Assembly: GCA_002269645.1 (NCBI GenBank)
Contig: NIVC01003826.1
Span: 1 to 64,000, forward strand
From: Macrostomum lignano
Lineage: Eukaryota
Length of the DNA stretch: 64,000 nt
Direction of reading: 5' to 3'
Below the pieces are notes generated by a model. The model was not told where the DNA came from, did not search any database, and was given only the letters and a program-made list of their open reading frames with translations. Position numbers and translations under genes: made by a program. This document shows positions 2 through 60,700 of this stretch, piece by piece. Each line of letters begins with the position of its first letter. Position 1 is the stretch's first letter.

Positions 2-135
2 AGTAGTAGGGGAAATGTGGACTCTGCCGCAGGAATTTCCGTGGGAAAACCACGGGCCTATGTGTGTAAACATAGCGCCTATGTAAATGCATTGGTGGAC
101 TCTGCCGCAGGGAAAGCCATGGAAATTCCATGGGG
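2..135 (+). repeat. Left terminal inverted repeat of Polinton 1
   Basis: Reverse complement of 16062-16196 with only a few differences; contains GTGGACTCTGCCGCAGG twice. Confidence 0.95.
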
Positions 136-199: not shown

Positions 200-207
200 T
201 ATATAAG
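200..207 (+). promoter_or_regulatory. Candidate TATA box for the leftmost Polinton gene
   Basis: TATATAAG about 80 bp upstream of the ATG at 281. Confidence 0.4.
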
Positions 208-1044: not shown

Positions 1045-1297
1045 TTGCAGACCCTCTGACATTGAGACAAACTCTGTGCTACGAGCTATTTATCCAGACC
1101 TGCTTTCCATCTCTTTGTTTGAAAAAAAATATATGCTTGCTTTCACATGCGCTATGCATTTTCAATGTCTTAAGAAAACCTAAAAAAAAAATGTTTCTTT
1201 GTTTCCGAAAATGGAAAAAATTTATTTCAACCAAATCAGCCTGCGAGCTATTGCAGTTCTTCAAAACTGCAACCTGAACTGCGAAAAAGAGGCGAGC

Positions 1298-2272
1298 ATA
1301 TTGGAGTCAAGAGCATTGAGCAGTGGCTAAGTCAGCAGCCAGTACACACTCTGCATAAGCCAGCTAGAGTACGATTTCCAAGGGCGCCAATAATAGTGAG
1401 CCATTGATGATCAGTGGGAGATGGATCTGGTGGAAATGATTCCATTTGCAAAGTATAATCGCGGGCATAAATACATTCTCACCTGCATTGATGTTTTGTC
1501 TAAATTTGCAATGGCCAGAGCACTGAAGTCTAAGAGCGCGGCAGAAGTGAAATCTGCGTTTGAGAGCATGCTGAAGAGCTCAAAGCGGCAGCCGCGCACT
1601 GTCCGCACAGATCAGGGAAAGGAGTTTGTCAACGCAATTTTTCGCCAGTTCTGCATAGACCGGGGGATTCTGGCGTTTCCAACTAGCAGTGAGCACAAAG
1701 CAGCCATAATTGAAAGATGGAATCGAACTTTAAAAAGCAAGATGTGGCGTTACTTTACTCACAACAGCACTCTACAATGGCTTGATGTGCTGCCTAAACT
1801 GGTCAAGTCCTATAACAATACTTTCCACAGAAGCATCAAGACTACACCAATGAATGTCAGCAAAGCAAACGAGACTGAAGTGTGGATGAACCTTTATGAT
1901 GGGAAAGCGATTGAGACAGTTGAGAAACTGAGAAAACCGAAGTTCTGTGAAAACCAATCAGTGCGGATTTCCAATGCACCCAGACTCTTCAGGAAGGGAT
2001 ACAAGGCGAACTGGAGCGAAGAGGTGTACACCATAGTGTTAGGGCACCAAAGCATTATCCCTACATGTACAGGATTCGAGACATGAAGGGGGAAGACATA
2101 GAGGCCTCTTCCACGAGCATGAGCTGCAAGCTGTTCCGGACTCGCAGCGGCTGTATGTAATCGAGAAGGTTCTGAAGACTGAGAAGCGGAAGGGAAGATC
2201 CGATATCTCGTCAAGTGGGCCGGCTACAAGTCCACTGACTGGGTGGATGAGAAGGACTTAAGAAAAGTGTAA
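1298..2272 (+). CDS. Polinton retroviral-like (rve) integrase with C-terminal chromodomain; frameshifted; 5' boundary approximate
   Basis: WLSQQPVHTLHKPARVRFPR upstream, DDE core (WEMDLVEM, RTDQGKEF, IIERWNRTLK). After frameshifts: YVIEKVLK...YLVKWAGYKSTDWVDEKDL, a chromodomain signature. Confidence 0.9.
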
Positions 2273-2302
2273 GATACCGACATTGTGCAGCCATTCCCAA
2301 CT

Positions 2303-3108
2303 ATGAGAAGCATCATCATTTGTAGCGAAAATGCTGAAGGTACTCCTAGTGACTTTCATTTTCACCTGCCTTCACTATTTACTTGGATCGAAATGTGGAC
2401 TATGAGGCAGGTCTGGCTGAAATCCATCTGCCTGCTGCATGGTTCAATGTTGACGAGCCTTACTGCTTCACTGTCTCAGATGGAAGAGAGCATGAGGCCC
2501 TGGTTCTTCAACCCGGACGCTTTGCTAGAGTGGAGGAACTGGTGAGCGCCTGAATGAGCTGCTGGCCAACTCTGAGTCACTGTTCTTCGATGCAATGAGC
2601 GAAAGGGAGTCTGAAATGGAAGCTGATGAGTCCGGTTTAATGGGGCGAGCAGCGCTAGAGATATTGGCATAAAGTTTGAAATCCAAGAGTTGAGAACGTA
2701 GTGCTCAACAACACGGCTCGAGCAGAATTGTTCCTTCCATCAAGTAAAATTCTGCAGTGGCTGGGATTCGGAAACCAGCCTGTGAAGATCCCACCCGGAC
2801 GGCAAGTGTCACTCTGCTGCATCGGTTGTCCGCCCACCAACCTGATCAACTTGCACTGCAGCATTGTGGAGCGAACAAACTGTAACTGGAACTCCGTGCT
2901 GCGAACTGTGAGCATGTCATCCGATGTCGAATGGGGCAGCTACATGAGCAAAGTGTTTAAGAAAGCAATTTTCTTCCCGATTCAGAAAGCTAATTTTCTA
3001 CATGGCATTAGATTTCAACTGCGTGACATCTTTGGCTACTCACTGACTGCTCGGAGCAGCAGCCCTGTTCTGCTCACAGTTCATATTCGGGAAAGGCTAA
3101 TACAATGA
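2303..3108 (+). CDS. Minor capsid (penton-like, PX) protein; frameshifted
   Basis: Joined frames give SDFHFHLPS..YLDRNVDYEAGLAEIHLPAAWFNV...IRFQLRDIFG...VLLTVHIR, the Polinton penton pattern F...LP..L.L...YEVGL.EI..P..W.N. It lies between INT and the major capsid gene. Confidence 0.72.
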
Positions 3109-3513
3109 ACTACCAACAGCTGATTCGTCAGTATTCAGGGACTCTGGCAGGAAGCCAAAAGCCGGCGCTCTATGGCTGTGGGAGTTTTCCAGGAATCATG
3201 ACTTACCAGCCTCCTCCAGAAGCTTCCACAAAGTCAATATCGCTATCAAAGCCAGGATACCACCGCCAGCGGTAGCAGCAGCAACAGCAGAAGCAATAGA
3301 AACAGACCAAAGCAGCGACTAGTCAAACAGGGCAGTAAGAAGCAGACAAAAAAGAAGAAAAAGAGTAAGACGGAGAAATCACCGAAAAGAAGCCAGTCAG
3401 GGCGAAATAAACCTAAGAAAGGGAGGTCTAAAACTCAAAGCAAGAAAACAGGCAAAGGAAAGCAAAAAGTGAGCAAAAAGACTGTGAAACGTGTTCTGGA
3501 CTCGCTCTCATAG
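3105..3513 (+). CDS. Small, very basic putative core/DNA-packaging protein; frameshifted
   Basis: The ATG overlaps the upstream stop. N-terminus MNYQQLIRQY...LYGCG; C-terminal frame KKQTKKKKKSKTEKSPKRSQSGRNKPKKGRSK...LDSLS* ends 2 nt before the MCP ATG. Confidence 0.5.
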
Positions 3514-3515
3514 CA

Positions 3516-4795
3516 ATGGCTTACGGATTCAACCCGAGACTCGATTTGTTCAAGTCCCCCATGCTGCAGACTGCCATTGAAAAATCCACATATGTTGATA
3601 TTCACCCCGTGAACTCTATTGCTACTAACTCACCTATTGAATTCGACTGTCATCCATCGGCTGATGAGTACACTGATCTGCTGAGCTCATTCCTGTATAT
3701 TCGCTGTCGCCTAGTCCGGCTTGGCGGGGCTTTGATGAGGGAGGAGGTTCGAAATGCCGATGGAGTTGTCACTGAGCGCAGAGACAGTGGGGTGCACCCA
3801 GAAAACTTTGTCCTGTCTACGGCATTCTCAGATGTAATCGTGAGCATCAACCAGCGCATTGTATCAGGTGGAGACCAGCTCTACCCCTACCATGCCTACC
3901 TAAAAGCTCTCATGAGCTCATCCGATGCTCAGCAGTTAAAGTTCTACCCCGCCGGATTCCTGGAACCCGAAACTGCTGCTGAGGGGCATGCCGAGAGACA
4001 CAGGGAGTCCCGCTGGGTGGAGTATGCGGGACCACTGCTCAGCGACATTTTCCAGTGTCCTGTTCTGCTGCTGAACAATTTACACCTGCACATCAAGCTG
4101 ATGCCCAGCGATACTGCATTCGCCATCGAACCCCAGATGAGAACAACACAGCCTACCGAATGGAAATCTCCCACTGCATTCTGAACCTGCGCCGAGTCAA
4201 AGTGGCGCCTCACATCAGCCTGGCGCATGAACAGGGACTGACCAATCAGAACGCACTCTACCCCATCGAGCGAACCGAAATGCAAAACTTTATTCTACCC
4301 CAGGGAATTCAGTCAAAAAATTGAAGGATTCACCCATGGCAAACTGCCGAAGTTCGTTATGCTGGTCTTCGTGAACCACCGAGCCTTCAATGGCCATCAC
4401 CATTCCAGCCCCTTCGAGTTCCAGAGCTTCAACCTCAGCCAGCTAGCACTAAAGAAAGGTGGTGAAGCCATGTGCCACGCTGCATTTGCACCTGAGAATA
4501 ATTCATTCGTGAGAGAGTACTTGCACTACCTGAAAAGCTGTCAGTCAGCCAGCCCTACAACTCGGTTCCGTGGGTCCCCTACCAGTTGTTCTCCAACGGC
4601 AACACAGCTTTCGCATTCGATCTCACGCCTGAGGGAGCGGCCCTGTGGTACGGACAGAAGGAGGGCAATTTGCGGCTGGAGATTCGCTTCCGACAGGCCC
4701 TGGAGGAGCCTGTATCTCTGATTGTTATGTGCCTGTATGACTCACTGATTGAGGTCACCAAGCACAGGGAGATTCTGCTAGATTTTCCATCCTAG
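3516..4795 (+). CDS. Major capsid protein (double jelly-roll, PY); split by several frameshifts
   Basis: LDLFKSPMLQTAIEKSTYVDIHP...PIEF...YTDLLSSFLYIRCRL, then ALYPIERTEMQNF, PFEFQSFNL, and FAFDLTP...GNLRLEIRF...LIVMCLYDSLIEV: typical Polinton MCP motifs. Confidence 0.88.
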
Positions 4796-4818
4796 GAGTA
4801 CGCTGGCGCAACGCTAAT

Positions 4819-5316
4819 ATGGATGCTTTTCAACTGCTTAAACTGGCTAAAAGCTTTTTGCCACAAAATAACTGTTTAATTATTGTCTTGAATTCAATAA
4901 ATAAAACATCTTATGCTTTAAACTTTATTCAGCGAGCAACTCTCAAAAGAAATTTATCTCGATGTAAGTTTATTTTCTTTCTGCTTCAGTACAGCTCATC
5001 CTTCGGTCACTGGGTGGTTTGTTATGCTGATAAGGAGAATTCCATAGAACTCTTTAACTCTCTGGGCTGGGACTCCAGCACTTTAGAGATCATTCACAGA
5101 GCACTGAAATCCTTTTGGTATTCTCCATTCTACTTACGTAGCAATGTGAATCGAATTCAGAGCTGTGACTCTGCTAAATGCGGTTTGTTCTGTCTCTTGT
5201 TTGCCTATCAAAAGTTTCGTTTCAAGCGCTCGTTTGAGTGGGTTCTGCGGCACCTCCATGCAAATCAGCAGAGCCACTTGAATGAAAGAATCTGCAAAGG
5301 TTTGAGAGTTGCTTAA
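4819..5316 (+). CDS. Adenain-like cysteine protease (PRO)
   Basis: Intact ORF with GHWVV (His), ELFNSLG and IQSCDSAKCGLFCLLF (Gln/Cys). Confidence 0.9.
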   Translation: MDAFQLLKLAKSFLPQNNCLIIVLNSINKTSYALNFIQRATLKRNLSRCKFIFFLLQYSSSFGHWVVCYADKENSIELFNSLGWDSSTLEIIHRALKSFWYSPFYLRSNVNRIQSCDSAKCGLFCLLFAYQKFRFKRSFEWVLRHLHANQQSHLNERICKGLRVA

Positions 5317-5369
5317 GAAAAAAGAAATTTAATTAGACTTTTAAAATCAAGGATTTAGCTCAACAGGCG

Positions 5370-6023
5370 ATGGAAACACGTGAGCGGATAAACTGTTATG
5401 ATGTGCGCCTGCGACAGGGAAGCTGCATGATTGTCAGCGGGCCTACAAATGCAGGAAAGACAACCTTCGTGAAACATCTGATACAATACAAGGATGTCCT
5501 GTTTGATGTGAAGCCTGGGAGAGTTCTGTGGTACTACGGGATTTCACAAGCAGCACACTCTGAGCTCAGCAGTCTCGGCGTGCACCTGCAGCAGGGATTT
5601 CCCAGCAGTATCGAGACCGCACTGAGACCCAATGACCTGGTTGTATTTGATGACCTGATTGAAGAAACTTCCAATTCTGCTGCAATGCGAAATGTTTTCA
5701 CTGGAATTGCCCATCATTTGCCCTGCTTTCTGGTTATGCTCACCCAAAATGTATTTTTTAAAGGGAAGGAGTTGCGAACAATGAGTCTGAATGCGATGTA
5801 CTTTGTGATCATGAAGAACCCCAGAGACCAGCTGCAGATTGCAGCGCTGGGCAGGCAGTGCTTTGCTGAGAAGCCCGGCTTTCTGCTGTCAGTGTTCAAG
5901 CACGTGACATCGCACGGCAGGGGAGCCTACCTGCTCCTGGATTTTCACCCTTCCACCCCTGATGAGCTGCGGGTCCGGGCTCGAATCCTGCCCAATCAGC
6001 GACCCCACCTGGTTTACACTTAA
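5370..6023 (+). CDS. A32/FtsK-like genome packaging ATPase
   Basis: Walker A GPTNAGKTT, Walker B VVFDDL, LTQNVF, SLNAMYFVIMKNPRD. Confidence 0.93.
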   Translation: METRERINCYDVRLRQGSCMIVSGPTNAGKTTFVKHLIQYKDVLFDVKPGRVLWYYGISQAAHSELSSLGVHLQQGFPSSIETALRPNDLVVFDDLIEETSNSAAMRNVFTGIAHHLPCFLVMLTQNVFFKGKELRTMSLNAMYFVIMKNPRDQLQIAALGRQCFAEKPGFLLSVFKHVTSHGRGAYLLLDFHPSTPDELRVRARILPNQRPHLVYT

Positions 6024-6040
6024 GAATAACAGCCGAGATT

Positions 6041-6388
6041 TTGCCATTTGTTCTATATTCTGCAACACTAATGATAATGGAAACCTTTGACTCACATGAA
6101 AGTTTGTTTGATGTTCTCGCGTCACCGAAATATTCCATCAGCTTTAAACGTCTGTTGATCAGAGCGGGTCCAAAAGCCGTACGTGAATTTCTCATTGAGG
6201 CCTGCTACAACCTATTGCAAAACACTCTGTCGTTCTCACTCACTCAAAAGGCAGCGCTGGTGAAGCAAAAGCAAATAATCCGCAAAATTTCTACACATAG
6301 AAGAACTGCGGATCTGCTAAATACGGGTTTTATCAAAATTCTCTACATTCTAATAAAGCTAGTGAAGAAAAAGAAGCAAAATGAATAA
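6041..6388 (+). CDS. Conserved Polinton protein (PW-like)
   Basis: LIEACYNLLQNTLSF...KAALVKQKQIIRKI resembles the conserved small ORF (ECALNIL.GN...L...K..IR.L) found next to the ATPase in Polintons. Confidence 0.55.
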   Translation: MPFVLYSATLMIMETFDSHESLFDVLASPKYSISFKRLLIRAGPKAVREFLIEACYNLLQNTLSFSLTQKAALVKQKQIIRKISTHRRTADLLNTGFIKILYILIKLVKKKKQNE

Positions 6389-7102
6389 GTTCTCAGAAAT
6401 GGTTCTGATCCCCAAGTCAGAGTACGACATGCTCACACAGAATTTGAAGCCAGTCGAGTCTGAAATGGACACTGCTGTGAGATATGCGCAGAGGAAATGC
6501 AATGATATTTTGCTTGCCGAGGATTGCCCAGACGATGTGAAAGCTGCCATGTACCATGATGCGATGAAGAGTTTGCTGGCAAGCGCAAGCGGACTGGAAA
6601 GGATGGTGCGGTACCTGCGAGTGATGCAAAGATGCTGAAAACAGATATTGCACCAAGCAGCTGGGGGGAAAAGATCACCCAATCCGTGCCGCAGAAGTTT
6701 AAAGCGAGAGCCCGCAGTCTATGGGCCATCCTATCTGGCAATCCCTCTCTGATTCAGGTGTCCGAAAATGGCGAGGCGCAAATTTCTGGGAAGACAATAC
6801 CCTCCTCAAACATCCTGGATTTGTTTCACAGTGCGGTGAGGGATTCGAAATGTGCCAGCGAGCCGGTAGGCTGGAGTGAGTTTGTCTCATTGCTTCAAGA
6901 CAAAAAGCTTAACATCCCAGCTTCGGCTATAGGAAAGTCAGTAAGGCAGCTAATTTCTAAACCGGCTGTTTCTCCAGAGGCCACCCCTGCACATCATACA
7001 GTTAAGGGATTCGGGAGTGGGAGAGCCTGGCTACACCTGAGCAGGAAAAAAAACTATTTAAGAAGGGGAACTGAGTCGGCTTCCCGACATCTTGCGTCTT
7101 GA
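6381..7102 (+). CDS. Conserved Polinton protein (PZ-like); frameshift near 6620 joins two ORFs
   Basis: KFKARARSLW...ENGEAQISGKTIPSSNILDL...PVGWSEFVSLL...NIPASAIG matches the PZ pattern GE......I..SNI.DL...P.G...F...L...N.P. Confidence 0.65.
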
Positions 7103-7114
7103 AACCATCCGATC

Positions 7115-7560
7115 ATGAACTATATTGACTTCCAAGGCTTCCCACGCGAGAGATCGAGCAGAGATTTCGTTGTGAAGGAGCTGGCCATTGCCCAAGTCCG
7201 GGCTGGCAGTTACCATATCACTCATCACGTGTACGCCTCTCCGTTCTCATGGGACAGAATCTCACCTGAGATGCAAGTACATTACAGAAAGCTCTCAAAG
7301 AATTTGCATCATTTCAAGTGGACAGATGGATCCGACCGTACATGCATTTGGCTAATGACATTCTAAACATTGCTTACGGTCCCACCTGGACAAGCGGGGT
7401 GAAAAAGTCCATCTTTCTGACTGAGCTGCTTGGCAGACAGGTGTACAACCTAGAGGATCTGGGATCACCTTTGATTCAAGCATCTGATACTGGTTGTGCA
7501 GTGAAAAATGTATTACTGTACTACAACTGGCTGAAACCGAAGTTCTGTATCAACTTAAGA
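7115..7560 (+). CDS. DEDD/DnaQ-like exonuclease-fold protein; frameshifted; 3' end approximate
   Basis: YIDFQGF...FVVKELAI (ExoI-like D-x-x-G-F...KE), then VYNLEDLGSP...CAVKNVLLYYNWL in the next frame. Confidence 0.5.
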
Positions 7561-7627
7561 AGCGAGGTGTGCCCGCACCACTCAAAAGCTCGCAAAGACA
7601 GCACCACTGACAGAAAGGACTCTCTAA

Positions 7628-8191
7628 ATGAGTACACCTGCGACAGCCCTGCGAGTGACCAATCTGGTCGGCGGCGTGGATCTGAGACTTGCTGGAGACA
7701 GGGGTGCCCAGTTGCCTCTGCGGGAACTGGCTCTCAGCATGGCTCATGTCATCTATCGCCCCGTCTGGCCCCGAGTGCTTATCAAGAGGATGCGGAGTCC
7801 CAGAGTGACTCTATTGCTCTATCCGACTGGACAACTGAGTATCTGTGGCGCCCGGAGCTACTCGGCCTCAGTCAGGGCCGCTCGTCGCTTCGTGGCTATG
7901 CTGCATCGCAGAGTGCCTGCTCAACTGCTGCCTCATCAAACTGTGCATGTGCGGATTAAAACTATTACTGCGCATGGGAAAATTGACTTGTGCAGAGCAC
8001 TTCCCCTCGCTAATCTTGTGAACACTTTACCAAATGCTCAATATGAGCCAGAATCATTTTCTGCTTTAATCTGCAAACTAAGCTTCTGCAAATGCCTGCT
8101 TTTTCACAATGGCTCATTCGTTCTCAGTGGTGCAAAAACAATGAGCATGCTAATTTCCGACTTTTCCTTGCTTGTCCGTTTTCTGTGCTAA
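7628..8191 (+). CDS. TATA-binding protein (TBP)-like protein, two-repeat core only
   Basis: Intact 187 aa. Repeat 1: LRVTNLVGGVDL...YRPVWPRVLIKRMRSPRVTLLLYPTGQLSICGARS. Repeat 2: VRIKTIT...YEPESFSALICKL..CKCLLFHNGSFVLSGAKT. Both follow TBP motifs I.N.V / Y.PE.FPGL / LIF.SGK.V.TGAK. Confidence 0.82.
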   Translation: MSTPATALRVTNLVGGVDLRLAGDRGAQLPLRELALSMAHVIYRPVWPRVLIKRMRSPRVTLLLYPTGQLSICGARSYSASVRAARRFVAMLHRRVPAQLLPHQTVHVRIKTITAHGKIDLCRALPLANLVNTLPNAQYEPESFSALICKLSFCKCLLFHNGSFVLSGAKTMSMLISDFSLLVRFLC

Positions 8192-8909
8192 TAATAACCA
8201 TATGTTTCAACAATTAAATAAAAAGACGACAGCTGAACAAAAATATAATAATCTTGCATGCATATACCACGTATTAAGATGCGTGCATTTTAATCAATAT
8301 ACCTGAAAATCAGACTTCGATCGACTTTTTCTTTATTTTCATAACTGAAATCGCAATATTAGTTTGAGTATAGAAAATTTAATCAGACCACAACCAACTC
8401 AAGAAAAAAAAGCACACCCATCACTCAGATTATGCACTGCTAAGACAAATAAAAACGAACAAGAACTAGCAGAAATGAAAAAGGAAGCCAATATTTTTCA
8501 GATAATCATTGGATAATGGTTACAAAAAATATGAGTAGCAAAGCTAGCAAAGATAAAAAAGGACAGTAACTCAGTTCATTCAATTGTGCAAAAATTCAAG
8601 GATAATAAAAAAGAGGAAAGCCAGACCAATATGCCGCAAATTATTCCAACATGGCTTTCACAAGTTCGTATTGAAATAAATCTGGAACAACTCAACTCGA
8701 AAATGTTACGTTCAGTTAGTTGCTTAGAGACTACAAATATGTAACTAACTGAATTGGCTCTATTCGTTCCAGCATTGTCATTATCATCATCATCCATCAT
8801 TATCATCATCATCATCATTCAGATTAATTAAACCACTGAAACAATTCATGGAGTACATAAGTAAAAGTCAATAAATTTCAACGCCAAGGTTACACAGATG
8901 TGCAAAGCA

Positions 8910-11900
8910 TCACTCTAAGCAGTCCGCTGTCCTTTTCGGACTACCCCTGATTAACAGCTGAAAGTGGCCGAACGGAAGACTTGAATTCGAGCCAGTCCAC
9001 GCTCGCTTGTCCTCCCAGATACTGAGAGCGAGCTTACGTTGCTCAATGGTGAAAACGCGATGTTTCTCACTTCCAATTCGACGAACAGTGAGCGACAGCT
9101 TTGAAGCCCCCTTGAAAATCTTGACGTAGTCGTCGTGGGAGACTTCATTCTTCAGCACGCTTCGTTGGATGCCTTTTGCTTTTGCTTTGCATGCCGCCGA
9201 GCTTTCAGCGAGGAAAGAATAGAGCTTGGGCCTTAGCAGCACCCACTCAATCTGTTGCAGTCCACCAGCTTCATCTTTAATGCAGCCTAGCTTGGCCTTT
9301 AGCCGATTCGAGAAGAGAGGATGATTAGTGAAAAAATTGGAGGTGTCCAAGAGGCCTTCGGCATGCAGGATTGGCAGCACTTCTCTCTGCAAACTAAGGT
9401 TCTCTAAGCTCAAAAACAACGAGTCTGTATCGCCACCGCAAACTCGAACTCTTGCTCCATCACGGAATTCTAGCATGGGTTTTATTTTGTCATAGTAAAG
9501 TCGATACATGATGATCTTGGAGCGATCTAGAACACACTGCCCCATGAAAATTGGCCGATCAAGAGTTACTTCGCGCTTTTGAAGCTCAAAGATGCTGAGT
9601 GACGGCGTAATGATTGTGAATGATGCGACATTTGGTTGAGAAGAAACAGTCTTGGCTTTTTTCTTGTCACTGCACACTCTGATGTCCCGCCGCTTGCGCA
9701 CGTTCTCCATTGTTTTGCCAAACAGGGAGTTATTTTTCAGTTTATAGAAATCCTTCTCGAAATCATTTTTCGCCATAGAGCGCTTCTCGCTATTCATCTT
9801 AATGTAGTCCGCGAAGACAGGTTCTTGCCTGAATTCGATCATCCTGTGGAGCCCATGCAACTTCATTCCGTGCGATAGATAGAATCGGAGAGCAGACGAG
9901 TGCAGTACATAGGAAAACTTGTTGTGGCATGTGAGCATTAATTTTTGTACTCCACGGTAGCGCGCAACGGTAGGATTCTCAGTCGTGTTCGCGTCGGGCT
10001 GCTGCTGCTGATGATGCTGAGAATGATCATTGTCATGTTGAAGCAGTACCCATAATTCTCGCATGTACTGCGGAAATTCTTCAAAATTCGGACACCTTTT
10101 CTCTGGGGCGAATGGAAGATCCTCCGTTGCCGTGTGGATTTCGGCTGGGTAGAGCAAATCCGCTTCGACAAGGTAGCCGATTGGAGCGTCATCATCCAGG
10201 GAAAGAAAGCGGCACTCGGACCATGAGCAGAGCTCCTCTTGACTGAGCCAGCGAAAGCCACCAACAGGTAGGGGCATTGTGAGCGCATGACCGTAAAGAT
10301 TATTAGCATCAACAGCCAGTAAACTCCTACCTGCTGGTTCATTATCATCATCGCTACTTTCGCTCTGGACATGATGTACATTGACAAAAGACATTCCACC
10401 CCGAATTCCTTTTTCAAACATTTTATACATCTCGAGGTCAGTTAGCAGTTCGATCTTGACTTGAGAAGACTTTAGTGCAGAAGCGAATGATAGGCCTGGA
10501 GTTGACACAAAATGCACCGGATCTAGCTTGTCTTCCTGCAAACTCAGCCTTCGAAACCCTCAAAGATATCTGCTAGTTGCCTGATGTCCAGCTCCAAGTA
10601 GCAGAGCATGTAATCGCGCAATGTTGTAGATTCGAATTCAGTCCAGGCCTTCTGCGCATGCCGATACTCCGTTTCGGTACAGTGGCTGTTGGTAAGTCGG
10701 TTAAAAAAGCTTCTACTTTTGGTAGTTGGCGATCATCAAGCACATTCAAATTCGAGAGATAATCATAAGGGAAAACTCCCTTACTAAACAGTACATCGCT
10801 TGAAAGATTTGGATACTTTGATCGCATCGCATTAGTGATGGGCAGTTGTCCTCCGGCAAGTTCTTAATAAGTTGAGATAGACTGCTGTGTAGGAATTGCA
10901 GTGAGTCGATGAATTGTAGCGTGAAAAACAGGGGCTTTTTTACGCCATCTTTCTCATACTCATCAATCTGGAACTCGACCCTCATGGAGAGGTACGACTC
11001 GGCAGTTTGGGGGATGACGCTCACCCTCCAACCAGTCATGTCACCCAGCGCAGTTGAGAAAATCAAATGCAGGTCATATCCGCGAAGATTGTGGAAAACT
11101 ATTGGCAAAAATCGCCGTTTTAGCCGAGCAAGCTTGTTACACGAAGCGCAGGCAGCACCCTTGTATTCACCGCTGAGGTGGTCGTGATCCCAGTGCTTGT
11201 CAGAAGATGAAATAAACACTGCATTGCATAAATAGCACTGTGGGGCATCTTGAAAGCTGCGCCTGTTGTCATCTCTGTTTCTGTCAGCAATCTGATGACT
11301 AAACTCGGTATTCCAACCATAAACTTCACGAGCAAGACGTTCGAGTGAGGCCAAAAACTGTTTCACGACAGAATTCGGATTGGGTCCGCTGCAGAGGAAA
11401 ACATCCTCACTCGGCCTCAGAATTTTGCTGCTCATACCCTCTCTTGGAATAACAATGTAGCCAGCAGCTACAGGTACATGCTCAGTTAACTTGGTGACAG
11501 TAACTTCTCTTTCAGACTCCACTGGTTCACGTGGGGTGTTCAGAGCTTCAAAATCTGCGTAGACAACAAATGGGGGACTGATTGTCTTTTCCCAAGCCAT
11601 GAACTGCATTGTGTTGCTACTTGCATCAGGCATGCGCTCCATGATGGCTGGTTTCAGTTGAGGATTGCAGCTGTCTCGATGCTGCTCCAACTCTTCCTGG
11701 GATCGAAACGGAGAAATGCACTTCTCACACCATTTGCGATTCCTCAGACCTTTTTTGCTGTTCAGGAGCCGGTCCAGGTTCGAAACTGCACACCAGTGTC
11801 CAGTCCCACAATTCTCATCACCACCACCATCATCATCAGCATCATCGGTGCTGGAGTTGCGAAGCAAGAGTAGAGGAATAACCTTGCGAGAGGCACAAAT

Positions 11901-12665
11901 CCCAGGAAGAGGCTGGCGAATGACATAGGCCTCATCATCTTCCCAGCTAAAAACTGTGAAACAGATTTCGGAATTATTTTCCTCTATAACGTTTAAATCG
12001 GAAATTGCGACTGGTAGTGCGATGCCGCTCAGATCGATTTCATCCAACCATCTGCTGTAAGTTGTTAGTCGATGGCAAGACTTCATCACACCAGGATCTC
12101 TGATGTGCAGGTAAGCGAGACAGGCAAACAGAAAGCAATTGTTTCCATCGCTCGGTGGGTTGATTATGGCCTTCTTAACCGCCAGCTGATTGGGCAAAGT
12201 AAAATTCGCGCATCGTCCACGATAGTAGCGAATGCGATCAGTGAGGGCAGAGCACAGATCAAAATAGTTGATTTGCTCAACCATCCAACCGCTCCCATTT
12301 GAATTGTAGGCATCAATCTTGCGTTCCAGCTCAGAAAACTGCTGCAACCACCACAATTCAAAATCTCTTAGATCAGAGAGAAGCTCAAGACCGCATGCGA
12401 TCCACTTATCTTCTGCATTGATTACCGCAGCTTCCTTGATTCTCACCATTCTGATGTTGAACTTAAGCTGCGCTCGAATAGATTTATTCTCGTATGAATC
12501 GAATCTCATCTCAACAGCCTGTAGCACTGCAAACTTCGTTGATGATAAAAAATGAAATGGCTCGAGATCTCTTGATGCTGGAGTGAAGCGTCTGACCTGC
12601 AGCGTGTCATCATGCGCACTAGCGTGAATAGCCGAGCTGAATTGAATGCCTGCATGAATTAGCAT
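8910..12665 (-). CDS. Protein-primed family B DNA polymerase (pPolB) with N-terminal C2H2 finger and endonuclease VII-like region; frameshifts at about 10.55-10.8 kb
   Basis: Polymerase motifs VDANNLYG, KLKNNSLFGK, GDTDSLF. Exonuclease motifs FHNLRGYD, FIDSLQF, KGVFPYDY. Also CYLC...DHDHLSGEYKGAACASCN (EndoVII-like) and CEKC...HRDSC. Confidence 0.95.
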
Positions 12666-15087: not shown

Positions 15088-16061
15088 GGTTTAAAATTTA
15101 ATCAAGGGTTTTTGTGAAAATTTGAAATTTCGAAGTCCGTTTAAATCTCAACAAAATATATTTTAATGGCTCAGTAGAATTTTTCAGTCCTTATATTCAA
15201 ATCACCAGGCAATATCGCCTATATGTACACATACAGATATGTTTACACGTTACATATGTGTATGCACTAATTATTTTCTTACCGTTATTGAGCAATAATA
15301 ATAATAAAACTGATAACATTCCCCCGTCCCGTGCATCAGTTAGTTTTAAAGACCTCCACCCCAGACCTGCACCCCACTTCCCCGCGGCCAAATCAGCAGT
15401 ATCAAGAAAAACAATAACAAGGCAATAAACGGCGCTTTGCAAGCTCACTTTCACAACAAATTCAGTCCAATTTGCGAGACTCGTACTAAAGTGCGGAGGA
15501 ACTCATGAACATAGGCCTATGTATTCCCACTGCCAACAAAGTTTAAATATTGTGGAGATCGGAAGCCAGGTTCGCCCAATTTTCAATTAACTATGGCTAA
15601 TGTACACTAGAGAAGTTTTTTACTATTTTTAGAGAGTCAGTTTTGGGCTTCCCAGGAACTTGTGCTGCTTTCCCCTGCGGCAGAGTCCACCAATCCATTT
15701 ACATAGAGCTCTATTCGGCTTTTTTCATTGAAGATCGAGTAGTAGGAAAATGAAAAGCGTCAAATTTTTCTTTTTTTGTCTAATTAGCTTAATTACTTCT
15801 CAAAGGATAAAAACATTTTCATTTAAAATCTAGAAACTAGTATTCTTTTGAAATGTTTGAAATGTTATTTCAAATTCGTCCTTTCGTTTCTATAGAAATA
15901 CGATAAAAGATCGAGAAAATTTCTCGAACCGAATTCCAGAATCGGATCGCGGTTTTGGAACCGACTATGAAAACGGAACAGACAATATGAAAAGCTTCGA
16001 ACCGATTCTGGTCCTGGAATCGGTCATATGAAAAGCCCGTATATTTCGCTGTCCGACCCCC

Positions 16062-16196
16062 CCCCATGGAAATTCCGTGGCTTTCCCTGCGGCAGAGTCC
16101 ACCAATGCATTTACATAGGCGCTATGTTTACACACTATAGGCCCGTGGTTTTCCCACGGAAATTCCTGCGGCAGAGTCCACATTTCCCCTACTACT
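16062..16196 (-). repeat. Right terminal inverted repeat of Polinton 1
   Basis: Reverse complement of 2-135; ends ACTACT. Confidence 0.95.
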
Positions 16197-35896: not shown

Positions 35897-37060
35897 TTGA
35901 GTCAGCACGAGCATATCAGCAGTTCAAGGCCTGCAGCAGCAGCGGCTGCCGCAGCAGCAGCAGTCAACGACCTTGGTCAGCAGATGCCGCGGCGAAGTGC
36001 GAGAAGCGAAGTGTCCGAAGATCCGCCAGACGAGCTTCTGCCAGGTTTGGACGACCTCGGCCAGAACATCAGGCCCCAGGATGTGAGAACGATGATGGCA
36101 GCTCTGCAGCAGCAGATTGAGCGGCCGGTAAGCAAGTCTGTTAAAATTGTAAAGTACACGCCCAGCCAGGACATCCACGTCTGGCTCGCCGCGTTCGAGC
36201 AACGCTGCGAGATGGAGCATATCGAAGACCCGATCGAGATGGAGCATATCGAAGACCCGATCGAGATGAAGCAGCACCTCGTTGCGAGTTTAGATCTGGC
36301 GACTGCTTACCCGGCTCTGCTCAGTATGCACCTCTCACGCTATGCTGGCTACGAGGAGGTCAAGCAGCGATTGATCGAGAGATTCGCCCGCCACGGTGGC
36401 GCTGATGAATATCGAGAGCTGCTGAGGCGCCGTCAGCAAGGCAAGAACGAGTCAGCAGAAGAGTACGCTGATGCCCTGCGCACCTTGGGAGAGCGAGCGT
36501 ACCCTCGAATGCACCCTGAGGATCGAGAGCGGGAGCTGGCTGATCAGTTCCTAGCTGGCATCAGGACGACACCAGATCTGCGCGAGCGGCTCTATTGGGT
36601 CCGCCCGAACAATCTGCTAGCCGCTATTCGAGAACTCCATCGTCTGGAAGGCGCCAAAGAACTGGTGCAGCGCTCTGCTCAACCCCCGGTTCGCATGCTG
36701 AACGGGGAGCGCGACGGTGACCCGACGCCCGACGCCACCGCTCAAGCTCTCCTAGCCCTGACTGATCTGCTAGAGAAACAGCAGCGACTGCTAGACAACC
36801 TGGTGCAGCGTGACCAGCAGTAGAAGACGAGTCCGCCTGCGAAAGCCATGATCTGCTATGGCTGCGGTCAGCCTGGTCATCGCAATGCACAGTGCCCGTT
36901 ACGCCAGAACCAGGGAAACGGCGAGACGGAGAGCGCCCACGGCAACGCCCTCCGCAGAGCCCAAGCCCCGGCTACTTGGCAGACTCCGAACGCTCACCAG
37001 AAGAAGAGGATGTCGGCTGCGCAGGCGCCAATGCCCAGTCCGACAGTCGCTCATCAGTAA
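35897..37060 (+). pseudogene. gag: gag with CCHC zinc knuckle; in-frame TAG at 36821
   Basis: WLAAFEQRC...RRRQQGKNESAEEYADALR capsid-like motifs; CYGCGQPGHRNAQC is in frame after the stop. Confidence 0.85.
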
Positions 37061-37100
37061 GTGAGGCTGAGTGCGGAGGTTTCGTGGACACCTCCGATGA

Positions 37101-40100
37101 TCAAAAATCCATGCGCGTGAGGCTGATCCGTACGTCACCGGCCGATTGGCGGGCCGAGAAGTCCCTTTCCTACTAGACAGCGGCAGTCGGAAAAACTTTC
37201 TTGGAGCGTCGACCTGGGCCAATGCTAGACGTCGGATGCCTCGTTGTATCATATCGCATGCTATCCCGGATTGCGTGACCATGTACGACGGTACGCAACT
37301 ACCCCTTGCGTGTAAGGTGATCATCTCGGTGGAGTTCGGTGATGTCGTCGCGGACACCGAATTCCTGGTCACGGTCATCGATTGTGAAAATTTGCTTGGT
37401 ATTAATTTCATGCGTGAACACTGCCAAAACTTGGACTTTGCTCAAGGAATGTTAAAGTTCAACAATGGCGCGTGCATTCCCGTTTGCTATTCGCGCCGTG
37501 AGCTTCAATCATGCCGGGTGTACACCTCCGAGAAGTGCACTCTGCCGCTGAGAAGCTCAGCGCTGTTGGCCGTCCAGTTGGATGTCGGCCACCCCGAGAA
37601 CCGAGGATCGCCATCAATCGTCGAGCTGGTGAAGTCGAGACTGCACCCCAGCTGCAACACTCTGGAAGCAGCTCCAGCTCTGATGACGATGCCTGAAGGT
37701 CGAGGCTACATCGAGGTCGTCAACACTGCTGACTGCGAGGTGTTCCTGCAGTCGGGCATCCGCGTTGGTGTTGCGACACCACTTAGAACTGCCGACCTGA
37801 TGTACCTGGAAGAGACGCTGGAACCTGAAGTGCGAAATTTGCCAAGGAGCCCTGAAGAGTCCAGCACAGCTTGGCTAGAGGAAGTCGAGATCAACAGCGA
37901 ACTGTCCGAAGATCAACGACAGAGAGTGCGAGATCTACTAGTTAAGTGTCAAGCAGCCTTCTCGAAGCACCTGCTAGACGCTGGCCTGACACACCTGGTG
38001 ACTCACGAGATCATCCTGAAGGATCGGACACCAGTCGCGCTACCACCGCGCAGGATCCCGCCTCATCTGAAGGACAAGCTAGACGCGCTGCTAGACGAGA
38101 TGCTGGCGAAGCACATCATTCGCCCAGCTTATTCTAGCTACAACTCGCCAATGCTGATAGTGCCCAAGAAGGACGGCAACATCAGGCTGGTGCATGACTT
38201 CAGAGCTCTCAACGACAAGTGCGTGTACCACCCGTACCCGCTGCCGCACATTCAGGAGACCTTCGCGAAGCTGCGTGGTGCCCAGTGGTACTCTAGCTTG
38301 GATCTCGCTCAGGGATTCTGGCAGATCCCGCTGCGCGACTGCGATCAGCACCTGACGGCGTTCTCTGTGATTGACCGCGGACAATTCTGTTTCAATGTTC
38401 TACCAATGGGTCTCCACGATAGTCCAGGCAGCTTTCAGCGTTGCATCAATAAGCTCCTGGACGGTCTGACGCCAAAGACTGTGCTTGGCTACATGAACGA
38501 CATCGTGGTGCACTCCGTGACCTTCGAGGAGCAGCTGGACAACCTGCGGACTGTACTCCAGCGGATTATCGCAGCCAACCTCAAGGTCAAGCCGAAGAAG
38601 TGCCATTTGTTCCTCAAGGAGCTGCATTATCTAGGCCACGTCGTGACTCCCAACGGCCTGAAGACCTGTGAGGACAAGATTGCGCAGATCCGTGATTGGC
38701 CCGTGCCACAGTCCGTTACTCAACTGAGACAATTCCTAGGCCTCGCCAATTACTACCACAAGTTTGTCAACGGCTACGCTGGATTTGCTGCGCCGCTGCA
38801 TGCCCTGACTCGAAAGGACATCGGCAGCCTGCGGCAGCATTGGACTGATGAGCACCAGGTAGCGTTCGACACGTTGAAGAAGAAGTTGTGTTCGACTGAA
38901 GTTCTCGCTCTGCCTGAGTTTAACTCAGATCCTGATGTGAAGTTTGTCCTAGACACTGATGCCTCAGACATTCGCATAGGCGCTTGTCTTGGACAACGGC
39001 AATCCGACGGCGTCGAGCGCCCAATTGCATTCTTTAGTCGGAAACTTCGTGATCCTGAGAAGCGCTACACGGTCACGAAGAAAGAGCTGCTTGCAATCGT
39101 GGACGCGATGCGACATTTCCGTCACTATTTAATCGGCAAGAAGTTTGAAGTTCGTTCTGACCATCGGGCCTTGCTGTGGCTGCTGAACCAGACGCAGGTC
39201 ACAGGCATCTTGGGCCGTTGGATTGAGCGATTAAGCGAGTTCCGCTTCCAGCTTCACCATCGCAAAGGCAAGGACCACGCCAACGCTGACGCCCTGTCAA
39301 GACGCCCGGAGACACCACCGATTGACTTCGAACATGGCCGACTGCTGGAGCACTCCGGTTCTGCAGCCCGACCCGGTGATGACACCAGCCTGGAGCAGGA
39401 CTTGGACACCACACGTGGGGCCACTGCGAGAGCAGCCCGCACGAAGAAGGTCCACACTCGCAACAAGGAGGCCGAAACTGCCCTGGCCGAAGACCTGGAG
39501 GCCACTGCGCCAGCAGCCCTTCAGCACGACGATCATCACTGCAGTCAACGCCTGGAGACCAGTTTGGACAGCAACCCGGAGGCCACTGACACCTCAGCCC
39601 TCCGCAGCGACGCCCACGCCGACTGCCGTTACTTGGAGATTCGCCCGGACAAAACCTCGGAGGCCACTGCTGACGTAGACCTCCTTGATGATGTCCAAGA
39701 CTGCGGATCTCGGAACCTGGAGACGCCCATGGACTACGACTCAGAGGCCACTGAACAAGCAGCTCTACTGATGACAGCCCACAACACGAATCCAGACCAG
39801 CAATGTAAGTTCAACTCCCCGGAGTTTTGCGCTGAGAGTTCTCGCCGTGTTGACAGAGGCCAGACTCTCGCGACGGCTGCAAGGTCAACGCTCTGTCCCC
39901 CGAGCCGACAGACAGCTGCTCATCGCCTGTGCGGAAAGTCGAGTCCCCCTTTGCGACACCGCCCAGTGCTGGAGAAGACTCACCCAATGACGACGATGAT
40001 CGAGCCGACGGCTACGGCTGCCTGCGACGAGGCGGGCTTCACGTGTTGCGTCTCGCCTTACAGCCAAGAGTCGCCTGGGCTGTGCAGTGGAGGCAAGTGC

Positions 40101-40322
40101 ACTGCACCAGCTGCGGAAATTCCTGTCAAGAGAGCGACGATGAGAACTTCGAAACGAGATCAGCGATTGTACGCCGACGTTGCGAGACAAAGTCCCTCGG
40201 AGCGACCTAATCCTGACGCCGACAAGACGGAGTCGCGTGATCAACTGCGAGCCACAGAAGCGGAGGCTGAAGAAAAATCCGGAACCCTCAGCCATGCCGC
40301 GCCGTGCTCACCGATTTTCTGA
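37101..40322 (+). pseudogene. pol: pol: aspartic protease, reverse transcriptase, RNase H, then a long spacer
   Basis: FLLDSGS; LDLAQGFWQIPL; RT catalytic motif reads YMND instead of YxDD; RNase H DTDAS...KELLAIV...SDHRAL...NADALSR. Confidence 0.92.
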
Positions 40323-42110
40323 GGTTGCCGATGACGCGGCAACAGTTTGTCGACGCGCAGCGCGCCGACCGAGCTATCAGCTATGTGCTCAATTTGGTCG
40401 AGAACAAAGCCCCGAAGCCTGAGTTCGACGCCCGGTTGCGGCTGACGAAGGAGCAGCGGAACCTGCTCGGATATTACGATAATCTACGAGAAGACAACGG
40501 CCTGCTGATGATCGATCTGACTGATGGCCAGCAGCCCCCGAAGGTTGTCCTGCCCGAAGCTCTAGATGCCCAGGTGCTCCAGGAGCTCCACAGTTCGCCA
40601 CTGTGTGGACACCTCGGCCAGACGAAGACGTTGAAGCGGCTACGTGAACGATTCTGGAGGCCCGGACTAGCCCGTGTCACCGAGAACTTTATTAGTAAGT
40701 GCCGCGCCTGTCTTGAAAGTAAATCCCGAAGACGAGACCGAGTACCTGTACAGAGCTTCCCTGTGTGCGAAGTTCTGGGAAGAGTACATTGCGACGTAGT
40801 AGGCCCTATTGCCCAGAAGAGCAAGAGCGGAAACCGCTACATCTTGACGCTATGCGACGCGAATTCGAAGAACCCGTTCGCCTATCCGATGAGGAACCAG
40901 AAAGCCAAGACGGTCATCAAGATCCTGCAGGAGCGCTTGATCCCTGACTTTGGTGTACCATGCTGGATACACACTGATCAAGGAACCAATTTCATTGGCT
41001 CAGCTTTCAAGAAGTTCTGCGACCTGTTTGGCATCCGGCATACGACGACAACACCGTACAATCCATCTTCAAATGGGCAAGTCGAGAACCTCAACAAGCA
41101 GCTGAAGAGTGTCCTCACCTGCCTCCTCGAGCGCAACCATAACGACTGGGACACCTTTCTCCCAGCCTGTCTGATGGCTCTCCGCTCTAGTGTACACCCG
41201 GTGACAGGCTTCACGCCACACTACCTGGTGTTTGGTCGAGATTTTCGACTACCAATCGACAACGCGATCAAGAAGCTGCCGGAGTATGCCGATCTGCCTG
41301 ACTATGTTAATGACTTCCAGCGCCGATTGGACGAAGCAACCGAACTGGCCAAAGACCGCCTGCATCTGCACCAGCAGCTGCGCGACGAGCCCTACTCGAA
41401 CCTGCCCGCCGCCAAGAAGCTCCAACCTGGTGACCTGGTTTTCCTCAACAACCCGGTGCTCGAACCGGATGAAGCGGCGAAGTTCCATCGACCTCGCAAA
41501 GCGCTGTACGAGGTAGTCGAACCCAAGGGCGAGGTCGTCTACAAGATTCGCCGTAGAGTGCCAAACCCGCGGGCCAGACGCGACGAGCTAGTAGTCCATC
41601 GCCGGAATCTGCTGCTCGTACCTGATGCCGACTACCAGCTGACTTCGGATCCAGAAGTCGACAAGGCCAAGAAGCGCCGCAGGTCGACTGATACCCCGGA
41701 CGGTGCAGGACCCGCGACCCTGACACCGATCCCGGAGGACGATCCCGATGACGATGATGATGACGATGACGCATGGTTGGCCTTCCGGTGGCACTTCCGG
41801 CCGTTGGCGATCCCGGATGTGCGGCCAGGAGGTGGACCGGTCACGACACCAGCGAACCAGGCAAGTGCATTTCGGCGTGAGCCACTGCCGTATGGTGATC
41901 GCCATGATGGTGTGCCTGGTTTGAATGCGTCTGCACCTGCTGCTTCTTTTTCACCTGTCCATGCGTCTCCTCTTCCCGAACCTTTTTCTGCGGTGCAGTC
42001 TCCTGCGCCACCTTCTTGCACCACTCAGGTGGAAGCGTCTCCCATACCAGTAGTGGTAGGTAGGCCAGTTAGGGATCGGAGGCCGCCGGAGAGGCTTCTG
42101 ATTAGCGATC
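40304..42110 (+). CDS. gypsy integrase (HHCC, DDE, GPY/F-like) in a different frame from pol; 3' end approximate
   Basis: LHSSPLCGHLG...CRAC; HCDVVGP; HTDQGTNF; NGQVENLN; PGDLVFL; C-terminal RDRRPPERL. Confidence 0.9.
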
Positions 42111-42181
42111 GTAGGGCCAAAACGTACGTTAGTCGCACCGCCCGCATGCGTGTGCACAAATTAAAACCTTGCAGCGCAGAA

Positions 42182-43220
42182 ATGCACAAGCGACAGCACC
42201 AGCCGACTCCAAGCTCGTCATCCGAGAGTGACCAGGGCCGGCCCAGTCGGAGCCGCCAAAGGCCGGGCACCCCGTCCTCCCCGGAGGTCATGGGCATTCC
42301 GCGCCGGCCTCTCGCCACTCGCCAATTGGCCCAAGTGGAGGGCCGCGAGCATCCAGAGCGCCCGCCTCGACGCGGACGGGAGCACGGCCGGCGAAGCGAC
42401 TCGCCATCGCCGGAGCCGCGGATCACAGGACACTGTCAGGGCTGAAGCCCCTGAAGTGATCGATCTAACGGCTGATTCCCCGCCGGAGATCAGCAGTGTT
42501 CGCCGACTCATGGCCCAGCGGTTGGCCGCGGCTTTTGCCTACGTCCAACTGAAGCAGGAGGTCAGCCGAGGCCTCCAAGCGGTCCGCCGCCACATTGCTG
42601 ATTCTTTTTCAGGAGCGGGACCAGAAGCCCTGGGTGCAGCCCGCCAACATGATCCTGGCGAGGCCACGAGTGCCGGGCCGCGGAACGCGCCGGCAACAGG
42701 GATCCATTATGCGCAGGCGGAGTCGCCGATGTTGATCGCCGACGGCGTTCCGCTGCCAAGTAGCGGCCACAGAGATCCAGACCCGCCGAACGACCCGTGG
42801 GACGACCTTCGGGAAGCGTTGGGCCGCGAGCTGCCCCGCGCCCCGCCGCCCACGCCGGCGGACCCGCCACTACTGGTCCATGTCGGCACCCAGACCAGCG
42901 AGCTACCGGATGATGACGGACGAGCGGCGCTGCTGACCGCCGCCTCTTGCCTGGCGAGTAATCTGTTAGGCAGCGCGGCCCGCCATGGACACGTGCCCGC
43001 TGTGCTCGCGGGCCCTATCTGGAACAGCCTGCGCCAGACTACCGTCATTGAGCGCATGACAATTATGGAAGAGGCTGTTCGCCTGAGCGGCTCTGATCTG
43101 CAGCCGCCGCTGCGGCCGTACGCCGCGCACCATGCCACGCTGGTCGTGATGCGACACCTCGGCGGCAGCGAGGCAGAGCTGCCTGCGGTCCTGGCTCGCC
43201 CTCCGCTGGACTATCTGTAA
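42182..43220 (+). CDS. Accessory third ORF of the gypsy element, not env-like; probable frameshift near 42440
   Basis: Arg/Ser/Pro-rich start MHKRQHQP..., then EVIDLTADSPPE... and a helical-looking C-terminus ending 517 bp before the 3' LTR. Confidence 0.55.
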
Positions 43221-43737
43221 ACGGAAAGGAAGACATGCTTGCTCTCGACTCTGCCTTAGCCGGCCCACTATTTATCCTAGGGACCGGTGCCCGCAGTTCC
43301 CCTTTTTGTTGTTGGTTGATGCCGCGATGTTGGTGTTCTCCAGCATCTAGGTTTGCACGGAATTGCCCAGCTCAGCCCCTTTTTGGGGGTTGCCCCTGTT
43401 AAGGTGTTGTAGGCCGGTAGTTATTTTATTCAGGTCGCGGCCTTTGAGTCTCCAGCTGCTCGCTCTGGGTGTGGAGCTAGCTCAGGAACGAAGAGCGCCT
43501 TTGTTTAGTGGATTGGCGCCCACACCGGTATTTAGGCGCCTTTCTGATAGCAGGCCAGTGCCCCTGCGGTATCGGGCGAGAACTCTGTGGCCTGCCCAGC
43601 CAAGCAATTACGTAACAGCATTTTATGTTAGGCCTCAACTTCCGTTCCTTTTTATTTGACATTTGCATTAAACCTGCATTTGATTTTAAATAAAGCGCGC
43701 GCCGCTGCACTCCGCCTCTTTATTTGAACATGGAGAG

Positions 43738-60296: not shown

Positions 60297-60563
60297 ATGT
60301 GGGGAGAAGCAGCCCGAGTGTTTCTGTGTTTGCTTAAATATAGCTAGCCGTAGAAAATTCTAGAAAATTCCAGACTGTACAATCTTGGAGTCAAGCAGGG
60401 AAAACAATCGATATAGCTCAGTGTACGATAGAGCATGAGGCGTGTGAATGTGAGGGGTGAGACTTCTCTATAGACAAAGCATAGGGTGAGGAGGCGAGGA
60501 GCATGAAGGAGAAGCATGGTGGAAAGAGAGATTGTAGCCGAAACCAGTGTGCTCAAGACTGTA

Positions 60564-60691
60564 CACTTGTGTGGAGAAAAGCGAAGCGAAGGCCAAAAGG
60601 CCAGTTTGCGATAAAATTTGGCCTTACTCGAGGCCAAAATCCTTTGCGTTCTGGCCTTTTGGCCTTCGCTTCTTTTCGCTCCACACAAGTG
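60564..60691. other. 128-nt imperfect palindrome / long hairpin
   Basis: CACTTGTGTGGAG..GAAGCGAAGGCCAAAAGGCCAG pairs with CTGGCCTTTTGGCCTTCGCTTC..CTCCACACAAGTG; inner stem TTGGCCT/AGGCCAA. Confidence 0.9.
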
Positions 60692-60700
60692 GAGAGAGAA

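Follow-up and report, generated by a model that had tools for sequence, protein, structure and literature searches.

What does a gene for a TATA-binding protein (TBP) do inside a Polinton? Polintons probably gave rise to adenoviruses and to other DNA viruses of eukaryotes. The question is raised by a stretch of Macrostomum lignano DNA of 64,000 nucleotides (contig NIVC01003826.1, positions 1 to 64,000; the window), for which a sequence-only reading had proposed that a mobile element encodes its own TBP, which may redirect host RNA polymerase II (Pol II) to promoters of the element or act as a TBP decoy. The element is a Polinton of 16.2 kb with the hallmarks of this group, i.e., terminal inverted repeats (TIRs), integrase, protein-primed DNA polymerase (pPolB), ATPase, and protease, and the TBP ORF sits inside the TIRs. 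The arms of the latter are 100% complementary in their outer part (2-61/16137-16196) and 97% complementary in their inner part (62-135/16062-16135); the left flank is absent because the element begins at base 2 of the contig. Its features are as follows:

2..135: left terminal inverted repeat, beginning AGTAGTAG
200..207 (+): TATATAAG box of the canonical type, ahead of the first ORF
1421..2086 (+): retroviral-type integrase, an open piece in this copy (Pfam rve, E 1.6e-14)
3516..4721 (+): putative major capsid gene, fragmented in this copy and named from its size and position
4819..5316 (+): adenain-like protease (Peptidase_C5, E 2.3e-4, at the curated cut-off)
5370..6023 (+): ATPase, presumably for packaging, with the Walker A motif GPTNAGKT and only weak AAA-type matches in Pfam
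7115..7959 (+): ORF that we take to be DEDD/RNase-H-like, with an IDFQGF motif, broken near 7330-7366 in this copy
7628..8191 (+): element-encoded TBP, 187 aa, ATG start
8217..8222 (+): AATAAA past the TBP stop, likely a poly(A) signal
8910..12665 (-): gene for the protein-primed family B DNA polymerase, split over two frames in this copy (DNA_pol_B_2, E 2.9e-8)
16062..16196: right terminal inverted repeat

A Pfam search gave no match for the putative major capsid gene, which is homologous to ORFs of 413-420 aa that adjoin the protease in metagenomic Polintons. The polymerase gene is convergent on that for TBP. The TATATAAG box, which had been noticed before at 200-207, is indeed there and recurs at the corresponding place in C219, C130, and C2183; it is likely a promoter of the early type, to be read by host TBP. 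On the opposite strand, ATATAAGG at ∼15185-15195 lies ∼105 nt before the leftward ORF at 15087 and mirrors TATATAAG near the left TIR. Outside the element, the window contains an inverted repeat at 60559-60696 (66 bp, 79% complementary, with a spacer of 6 nt) and a GC-rich block at 36000-44000 (57-61%, vs 33-50% elsewhere).

That the ORF encodes a TBP was borne out. Its product matches PF00352 in two stretches (E 4.5e-22; 78.1 bits vs the curated cut-off of 22.9), corresponding to the two TBP-type repeats described from the sequence alone, lacks the N-terminal extension of cellular TBPs, as had also been stated, and matches 35 TBP-containing PDB sequences. Its closest relatives are labeled as proteins of Macrostomum lignano. 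The structure prediction that had been suggested as a check yielded the TBP saddle with a mean pLDDT of 93.7, the model having been built from an alignment of 29 rows that included host TBP. It superposes on human TBP with a VIA Z of 20.2 and an rmsd of 1.8 Å over 172 residues (Foldseek TM ∼0.8), and on yeast and archaeal TBP with Z ∼20 and rmsd ∼1.8 Å. The protein is strongly basic (24 K+R vs 7 D+E). The host genome has genes of its own elsewhere, for TBP on C70 and for a TRF2-like protein on C350.

The intactness of the ORF had been contrasted with the frameshifts in most of its neighbors. This contrast did not hold: the frame of the ATPase is open too, and other copies are free of the breaks, so that TBP is not uniquely intact. 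The breaks of this copy are shared neither by short-read contigs (four studies) nor by other genomic copies; they are probably errors of long-read assembly, or private to this copy. Intactness at this locus is therefore no evidence for selective retention, whereas the ratio of nonsynonymous to synonymous substitution is. Over 24 observed stop-free copies picked as representatives (two C110-type rows were left out), omega was 0.29 (lnL −3831 vs −3937 for omega = 1), codons 2-110 giving 0.29 and codons 112-187 giving 0.08; in each case, the fit was far superior to that with omega fixed at 1.

Searching the genome with the TBP returned 152 matches from 237 candidates, 150 of which were scored. 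By hand count, 94 of the first 97 of the 150 matches listed are near-full-length, stop-free, and 71-100% identical; a further family was found at 36-38% identity. As the earlier reading had recommended, other copies of the element were inspected for the ORF. All 10 loci fetched with their flanks are Polintons, among them a family with 36% identity in TBP and 54% in the integrase, and TBP follows the DEDD-like ORF, at the same place, in 10/10. Further Polinton stretches, chosen by their ATPase, have a TBP-like frame in nine of 10 cases; the one without (C1390) may be truncated and still has TATAAG sites. In the phylogeny (41 rows), another check proposed earlier, the element TBP clade lies outside cellular TBPs, and forcing element TBPs and host TBP into one clade was rejected (p-AU 0.0013). 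Support for all Polinton TBPs as one clade was 70/84, with long branches. Thus, the element TBP is a genuine, selected, element-borne gene. A recent, decaying retrocopy of host TBP present in this copy only can be discarded with near certainty, given 27% identity to the host protein, the same place across families, omega values of 0.08-0.29, and the rejected clade with host TBP.

To compare individual residues, yeast numbering, as we assume it to apply, was transferred to the element TBP via host TBP in a gap-free alignment; which base each residue contacts is likewise taken as given. The four intercalating aromatic positions (F99/F116/F190/F207) had been read as W, Y, F, and F. This is correct for three, namely F116 (Y65), F190, and F207, but not for the first: yeast F99 falls on Pro48 and Trp47 on R98, so that the positions read P, Y, F, and F, and a Trp replacing F99 in register is ruled out, as it lies one residue before the F99 position. 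Pro48 is invariant in 15/15 rows of the TBP alignment, and Pro at the F99 position recurs in four distant Macrostomum families and in most metagenomic TBPs of group B (see below). To judge from the alignment, the neighboring Trp47 might stand in for F99, and the loss of the latter could weaken DNA bending. The remaining two statements on residues proved accurate. The first DNA-contacting Asn is kept (N69 = N12) and the second lost (N159 = T112), so that only one of the two base-reading Asn of a canonical TBP is present, and the YEPE stirrup is retained (E140/E142 = yeast E186/E188). E186 and E188 make contact with TFIIB-family proteins.

Compared with host and yeast TBP, the changes are F99P, F116Y, V122S, T124C, Q158K, N159T, V161T, P191S, V203K, and T215S, whereas N69, V71, T112, L114, F190, F207, and E186/E188 are unchanged from host TBP. 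K111, T112, P48, K155, and H160 are invariant in 15/15 alignment rows. As many of the saddle changes are fixed across a clade spanning 34% identity, they look like changed specificity rather than decay. Judged by its residues, the predicted DNA-facing surface is rebuilt while the acidic, TFIIB-binding stirrup is retained; the protein is a member of the TBP family, yet, by these residues, not a canonical TATA reader. The TBPs of the distant Macrostomum Polinton families C1975, C1680, C724/C877/C2373, and C362 are very divergent, with N69 lost and a DAE stirrup. For C362 (L161:6371-7789), the TBP-like frame runs stop-free into a deoxynucleoside-kinase (dNK) domain (E 7e-24) and possibly encodes a TBP-dNK fusion.

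TATATAAG had been named as the target for an electrophoretic mobility shift assay; the candidate box found upstream of several ORFs is YTTAAGAA, and TATATAAG is separate from it and of the canonical type. In the left arm (6.5 kb), the coding strand has nine copies of TAAGAA and the opposite strand none, and TTAAGAA occurs seven times (+) versus zero times (−), as compared with a shuffle mean of 0.6 and 0/300 shuffles as high, although these window statistics are post hoc, the motif having been picked by eye. TAAGAA was also enriched in four other families (0-10/300 shuffles as high). TTAAGAA was not enriched in the C110 family (19/300 shuffles), nor was it across the whole 64-kb window (18 vs 13.5). 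Diverged families retain TAAGAA at 8/9, 8/9, and 3/9 sites, compared with 22%, 22%, and 4% for all hexamers, which makes it second of 257 hexamers in retention, the first being the overlapping CTTAAG. The sites are:

1170..1176 (+): TTAAGAA box ahead of the integrase region; conserved in C114 and C2183
2258..2264 (+): TTAAGAA box, preceding the ATG at 2303 by 44 nt; conserved in C114, C2183, and C110
2957..2963 (+): TTAAGAA box; kept in C114, C2183, and C110, with CTATAAGAA there
3414..3419 (+): TAAGAA box, followed after 102 nt by the putative major capsid gene; TTAAGAA in C114 and C2183
5313..5319 (+): TTAAGAA box 56 nt before the ATPase gene; its TAA closes the protease frame
6020..6026 (+): TTAAGAA box, preceding ORF 6071 by 50 nt and supplying, with its TAA, the stop codon of the ATPase gene; conserved in C114, C2183, and C110
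7058..7064 (+): TTAAGAA box 56 nt before the DEDD-like ORF
7555..7561 (+): TTAAGAA box inside the upstream ORF, 72 nt before the TBP start

Another TAAGAA, at 3336, is not conserved. Boxes thus lie 44-102 nt before ORF 2303, the putative capsid gene, the ATPase gene, ORF 6071, the DEDD-like ORF, and TBP; no box is close to the protease gene, ORF 6381, or ORF 6632. The C110 family has TATAAAA in place of the box ahead of TBP (∼9659 of its locus), and the timing of TBP may therefore differ between families, a canonical TATAAAA in one and the putative late box in the other.

An alignment of short TBPs led to 80 metagenomic loci. Polinton core genes are matched by 39 of these, with two or more such genes in 21; for the 37 loci of at least 4 kb, the numbers are 25 and 19, and the others of the 80 are short or cellular-looking. 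TBP-like genes adjoin Polinton core genes in many metagenomic contigs and are not confined to this element. In IMG/VR, no relatives were retrieved with the Macrostomum TBP alignment, with P0029, or with the window ATPase, and the A5 alignment retrieved one locus, at which no Polinton core gene was matched. The only IMG/VR element found through its ATPase has TBP as well, and boxes were compared among TBP-bearing elements. Some metagenomic Polintons have a gene for a PC4-domain protein just upstream of TBP (L073:1302-1790, L083:971-1453).

Two groups of 12 metagenomic loci were formed, group A with query-like TBPs (loci of at least 4 kb) and group B with more distant ones; both include near-duplicates and stem from few source datasets. 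The top upstream hexamer was TAAGAA in group A (30/113 ORFs, 7.5 expected; rank 1 of 3444) and ATAAAC in group B (46/131 ORFs, 9.3 expected). The distant Macrostomum families have mostly boxes of the TATAAG(C/T)A type, 41-58 nt before the ATG. Across four sets, the bin of 20-29 nt between box and ATG holds 0, 2, 0, and 0 sites and that of 30-39 nt 3, 16, 16, and 0, the fourth set beginning at 41. The edge at ∼30-33 nt (with a minor cluster at 5-19 nt in groups A and B) is as expected of a TATA-type element. No initiator motif or peak was found downstream of the box in the box-aligned sets. Group A TBPs keep F99 and have mostly N or Q at T124, as opposed to F99P/V122S/T124C in Macrostomum; one TAAGAA box thus goes with two different saddles, and no simple code links residues to the box.

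The low-complexity tail of the DEDD-like ORF overprints TBP codons 1-110 (7628-7959) in another frame, which ends at the same stop in 10/10 subfamily representatives; within the C110 family (36% identical), it extends to codon 129, and to codon 90 in its copy C1769. Third-position T at stop-making sites of the overlap was found in 0/14, 0/16, 0/15, and 0/12 cases, as opposed to 141/462 in seven other element genes (codon-permutation P ∼0.004-0.006 for the window and 0.015-0.05 for C110, in a post hoc test). The sequence of the tail is not conserved, so that it seems to be the open frame that is selected; look-alike proteins are only 167-181 aa long. As it ends past the internal Met codons 38, 55, and 91 of TBP, it may, speculatively, block re-initiation from read-through mRNAs. 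Contigs from sequencing runs of guessed RNA status (several studies), whose origin from RNA is uncertain, cover the element including most of TBP but speak neither for nor against expression; they show presence only, and no splice joint between the upstream ORF and TBP is listed among them.

For C219 and C130, identity to the window is 94-100% across most of the virion block (∼2250-7900), 72-82% at 2751-3500, and 52-69% in the polymerase gene. The synonymous divergence to both jumps from 0.07-0.14 to 0.70 near TBP codon 100 (codons 92-110), and in trees of the two TBP halves, C38 and C211 fall on opposite sides of 100/100 splits. For the 3′ half, neither of the two 5-taxon groupings tried was rejected by AU tests (p 0.25 and 0.33). 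Because of this step and the differing 100/100 splits, TBP is a recombination junction, with repeat 1 belonging to the box-bearing virion block and repeat 2 to the polymerase arm. Module exchange within this virus group is described in bioRxiv 10.64898/2026.10.13.758929.

The proposal that the element redirects host Pol II to its own promoters is the best-supported reading, now with a candidate target box, which is YTTAAGAA and not TATATAAG. With moderate confidence, we take the minimal viral TBP to bind YTTAAGAA and to recruit host TFIIB and Pol II to the genes for integration and particle formation, which would tie together the selected gene at its fixed place, the TBP fold with its rebuilt saddle and kept stirrup, and the strand-specific, conserved box with its TATA-like spacing. 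Host TBP would initially fire the canonical TATATAAG promoters near the TIRs. Viral TBP would then be made, from TATAAAA in the C110 family and from the late box in the window family, where the latter would allow feed-forward. The protein would finally load on the G-containing boxes, so that the genes for integrase, capsid, and ATPase, and their neighbors, are expressed as a late class. The overlapping upstream frame might, speculatively, keep ribosomes on longer read-through mRNAs from making TBP or an N-truncated form of it.

Alternatively, the box could be a weak TATA variant read by host TBP/TFIID, with the viral protein acting as an accessory factor or decoy, titrating TBP regulators or TFIIB and thereby shifting transcription toward replicating element DNA. 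All members retain the acidic stirrup, N159 and one of the intercalating Phe have been lost, and the protein is strongly basic, all of which would suit such a role; moreover, wild-type TBP was crystallized on a G(-26) TATA variant (title of PDB 1qn5), so host TBP might read the box. However, the changed saddle residues are fixed and polar, not randomized, and the box differs between TBP lineages, which would not be expected of a pure decoy. This reading is thus considered unlikely, though it deserves to be kept in mind.

In analogy to the TAAG of baculoviruses and to virophages, the DTAAG core might be a late initiator that a large DNA virus, as helper, serves in trans with its RNA polymerase, TBP doing something else; TAAG is almost invariably preceded by A, G, or T, matching the baculovirus consensus. 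The edge of the spacing near 30 nt, which is TATA-like and not initiator-like, and the use of ATAAAC by a sister lineage render this quite improbable. Very improbable, too, is a 3′-end or translation-termination signal at gene junctions that is unrelated to TBP. Boxes are mostly at tandem junctions, and the TAA of the box is often the upstream stop codon (23/122, 15/119, and 7/121 ORFs). Against this, the box at 7555 is internal to the upstream ORF, whose stop comes 400 nt later, and precedes the TBP ATG by 72 nt; moreover, the last genes are closed by AATAAA or have no box at their end. The box is present in only 3/44 convergent tails, although a comparison with divergent heads (5/36) does not separate promoter from terminator. 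That the element TBP is a non-transcriptional DNA-bending or packaging factor, as its basic character, its place at the end of the virion-gene block, and its sharing of the particle genes' box in the window family might suggest, is barely credible, as retention of E186/E188 makes sense only with partners of the TFIIB family.

Recruitment of host TFIIB and Pol II by the viral TBP might extend beyond this element. We tentatively propose, while conceding that it may well prove too broad, that a large part of animal-type Polintons carries a one-protein late switch: an old, fast-evolving TBP with the grip on TFIIB kept and the saddle rebuilt, boxes that co-evolve with it (YTTAAGAA, TATAAGC, and YATAAACA), and, in the window family, a dose gated by the overprinted frame. 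The literature searched does not describe the timing of Polinton capsid genes, for which a self-encoded TBP with a private box offers a concrete mechanism that is testable with one protein and short oligonucleotides. Such a mechanism would favor an autonomous viral life cycle over pure transposition. Natural TBPs with altered box preference would test the rules of TATA recognition and, if the proposal is true, amount to a natural library of orthogonal TBP-promoter pairs and to the smallest known viral pre-initiation system.

Among known systems, the cellular TBP/TRF family (PF00352) shares the two-repeat saddle (Z ∼20, rmsd 1.8 Å), N69, F116 (as Y), F190, F207, and E186/E188 with the element TBP, which differs in its 27% identity, the missing N-terminal extension, the rebuilt saddle, its multicopy, element-borne nature, and its position outside the cellular clade. 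Nucleocytoviruses encode their own RNA polymerase, whereas a Polinton has none and would rely on host Pol II. Their TBP homologues (in BFVD, e.g., the TBP of Heterosigma akashiwo virus and an asfa-like B263R homologue) have a viral TBP fold in common with the element protein, but identity is mostly 8-16%. The core set of Polintons (TIRs, integrase, pPolB, ATPase, protease, and putative capsid) is common to this element; TBP is not among the listed core genes. It is not mentioned in the main texts of PMC8097293, PMC10748475, and PMC11161782, nor in the accessible part of that of bioRxiv 10.64898/2026.10.13.758929. Within the open literature, i.e., apart from subscription papers and Repbase, the only trace of TBP in Polinton-type elements was a label in the legend to Fig. 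5 of Starrett et al. 2021 (PMC8502044), for a MELD virus with adintovirus-like PolB; one supplement file of that paper had 0 matches for TBP. The MELD virus resembles the present case in having a TBP-like gene in a Polinton-type genome and differs in that, in the part of the paper accessible, the legend gives the label only, with no analysis, box, selection test, or breadth.

A probable functional parallel is found in beta- and gamma-herpesviruses, whose viral TBP likewise combines a TBP fold of more polar DNA face with a non-canonical TATA-like box before structural genes, a pairing that in the Polinton would be one of protein and candidate box. According to PMC12529657, the TBP mimic ORF24 of KSHV pairs with a TATT late box, is a multidomain protein within a complex of six members, contacts Pol II directly, and does not have the acids that bind TFIIB; the same source states the role of E186/E188 in TFIIB binding. 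The element TBP, by contrast, is a bare core of 187 aa with these acids kept, without a Pol II-binding N-terminal domain or an extra C-terminal DNA-binding domain, and no partner complex was identified for it. By this comparison, the element TBP is likely to act in the manner of the late-gene TBP of herpesviruses, although it is not a member of that family, and, if so, it would parallel the late system of herpesviruses with far fewer parts.
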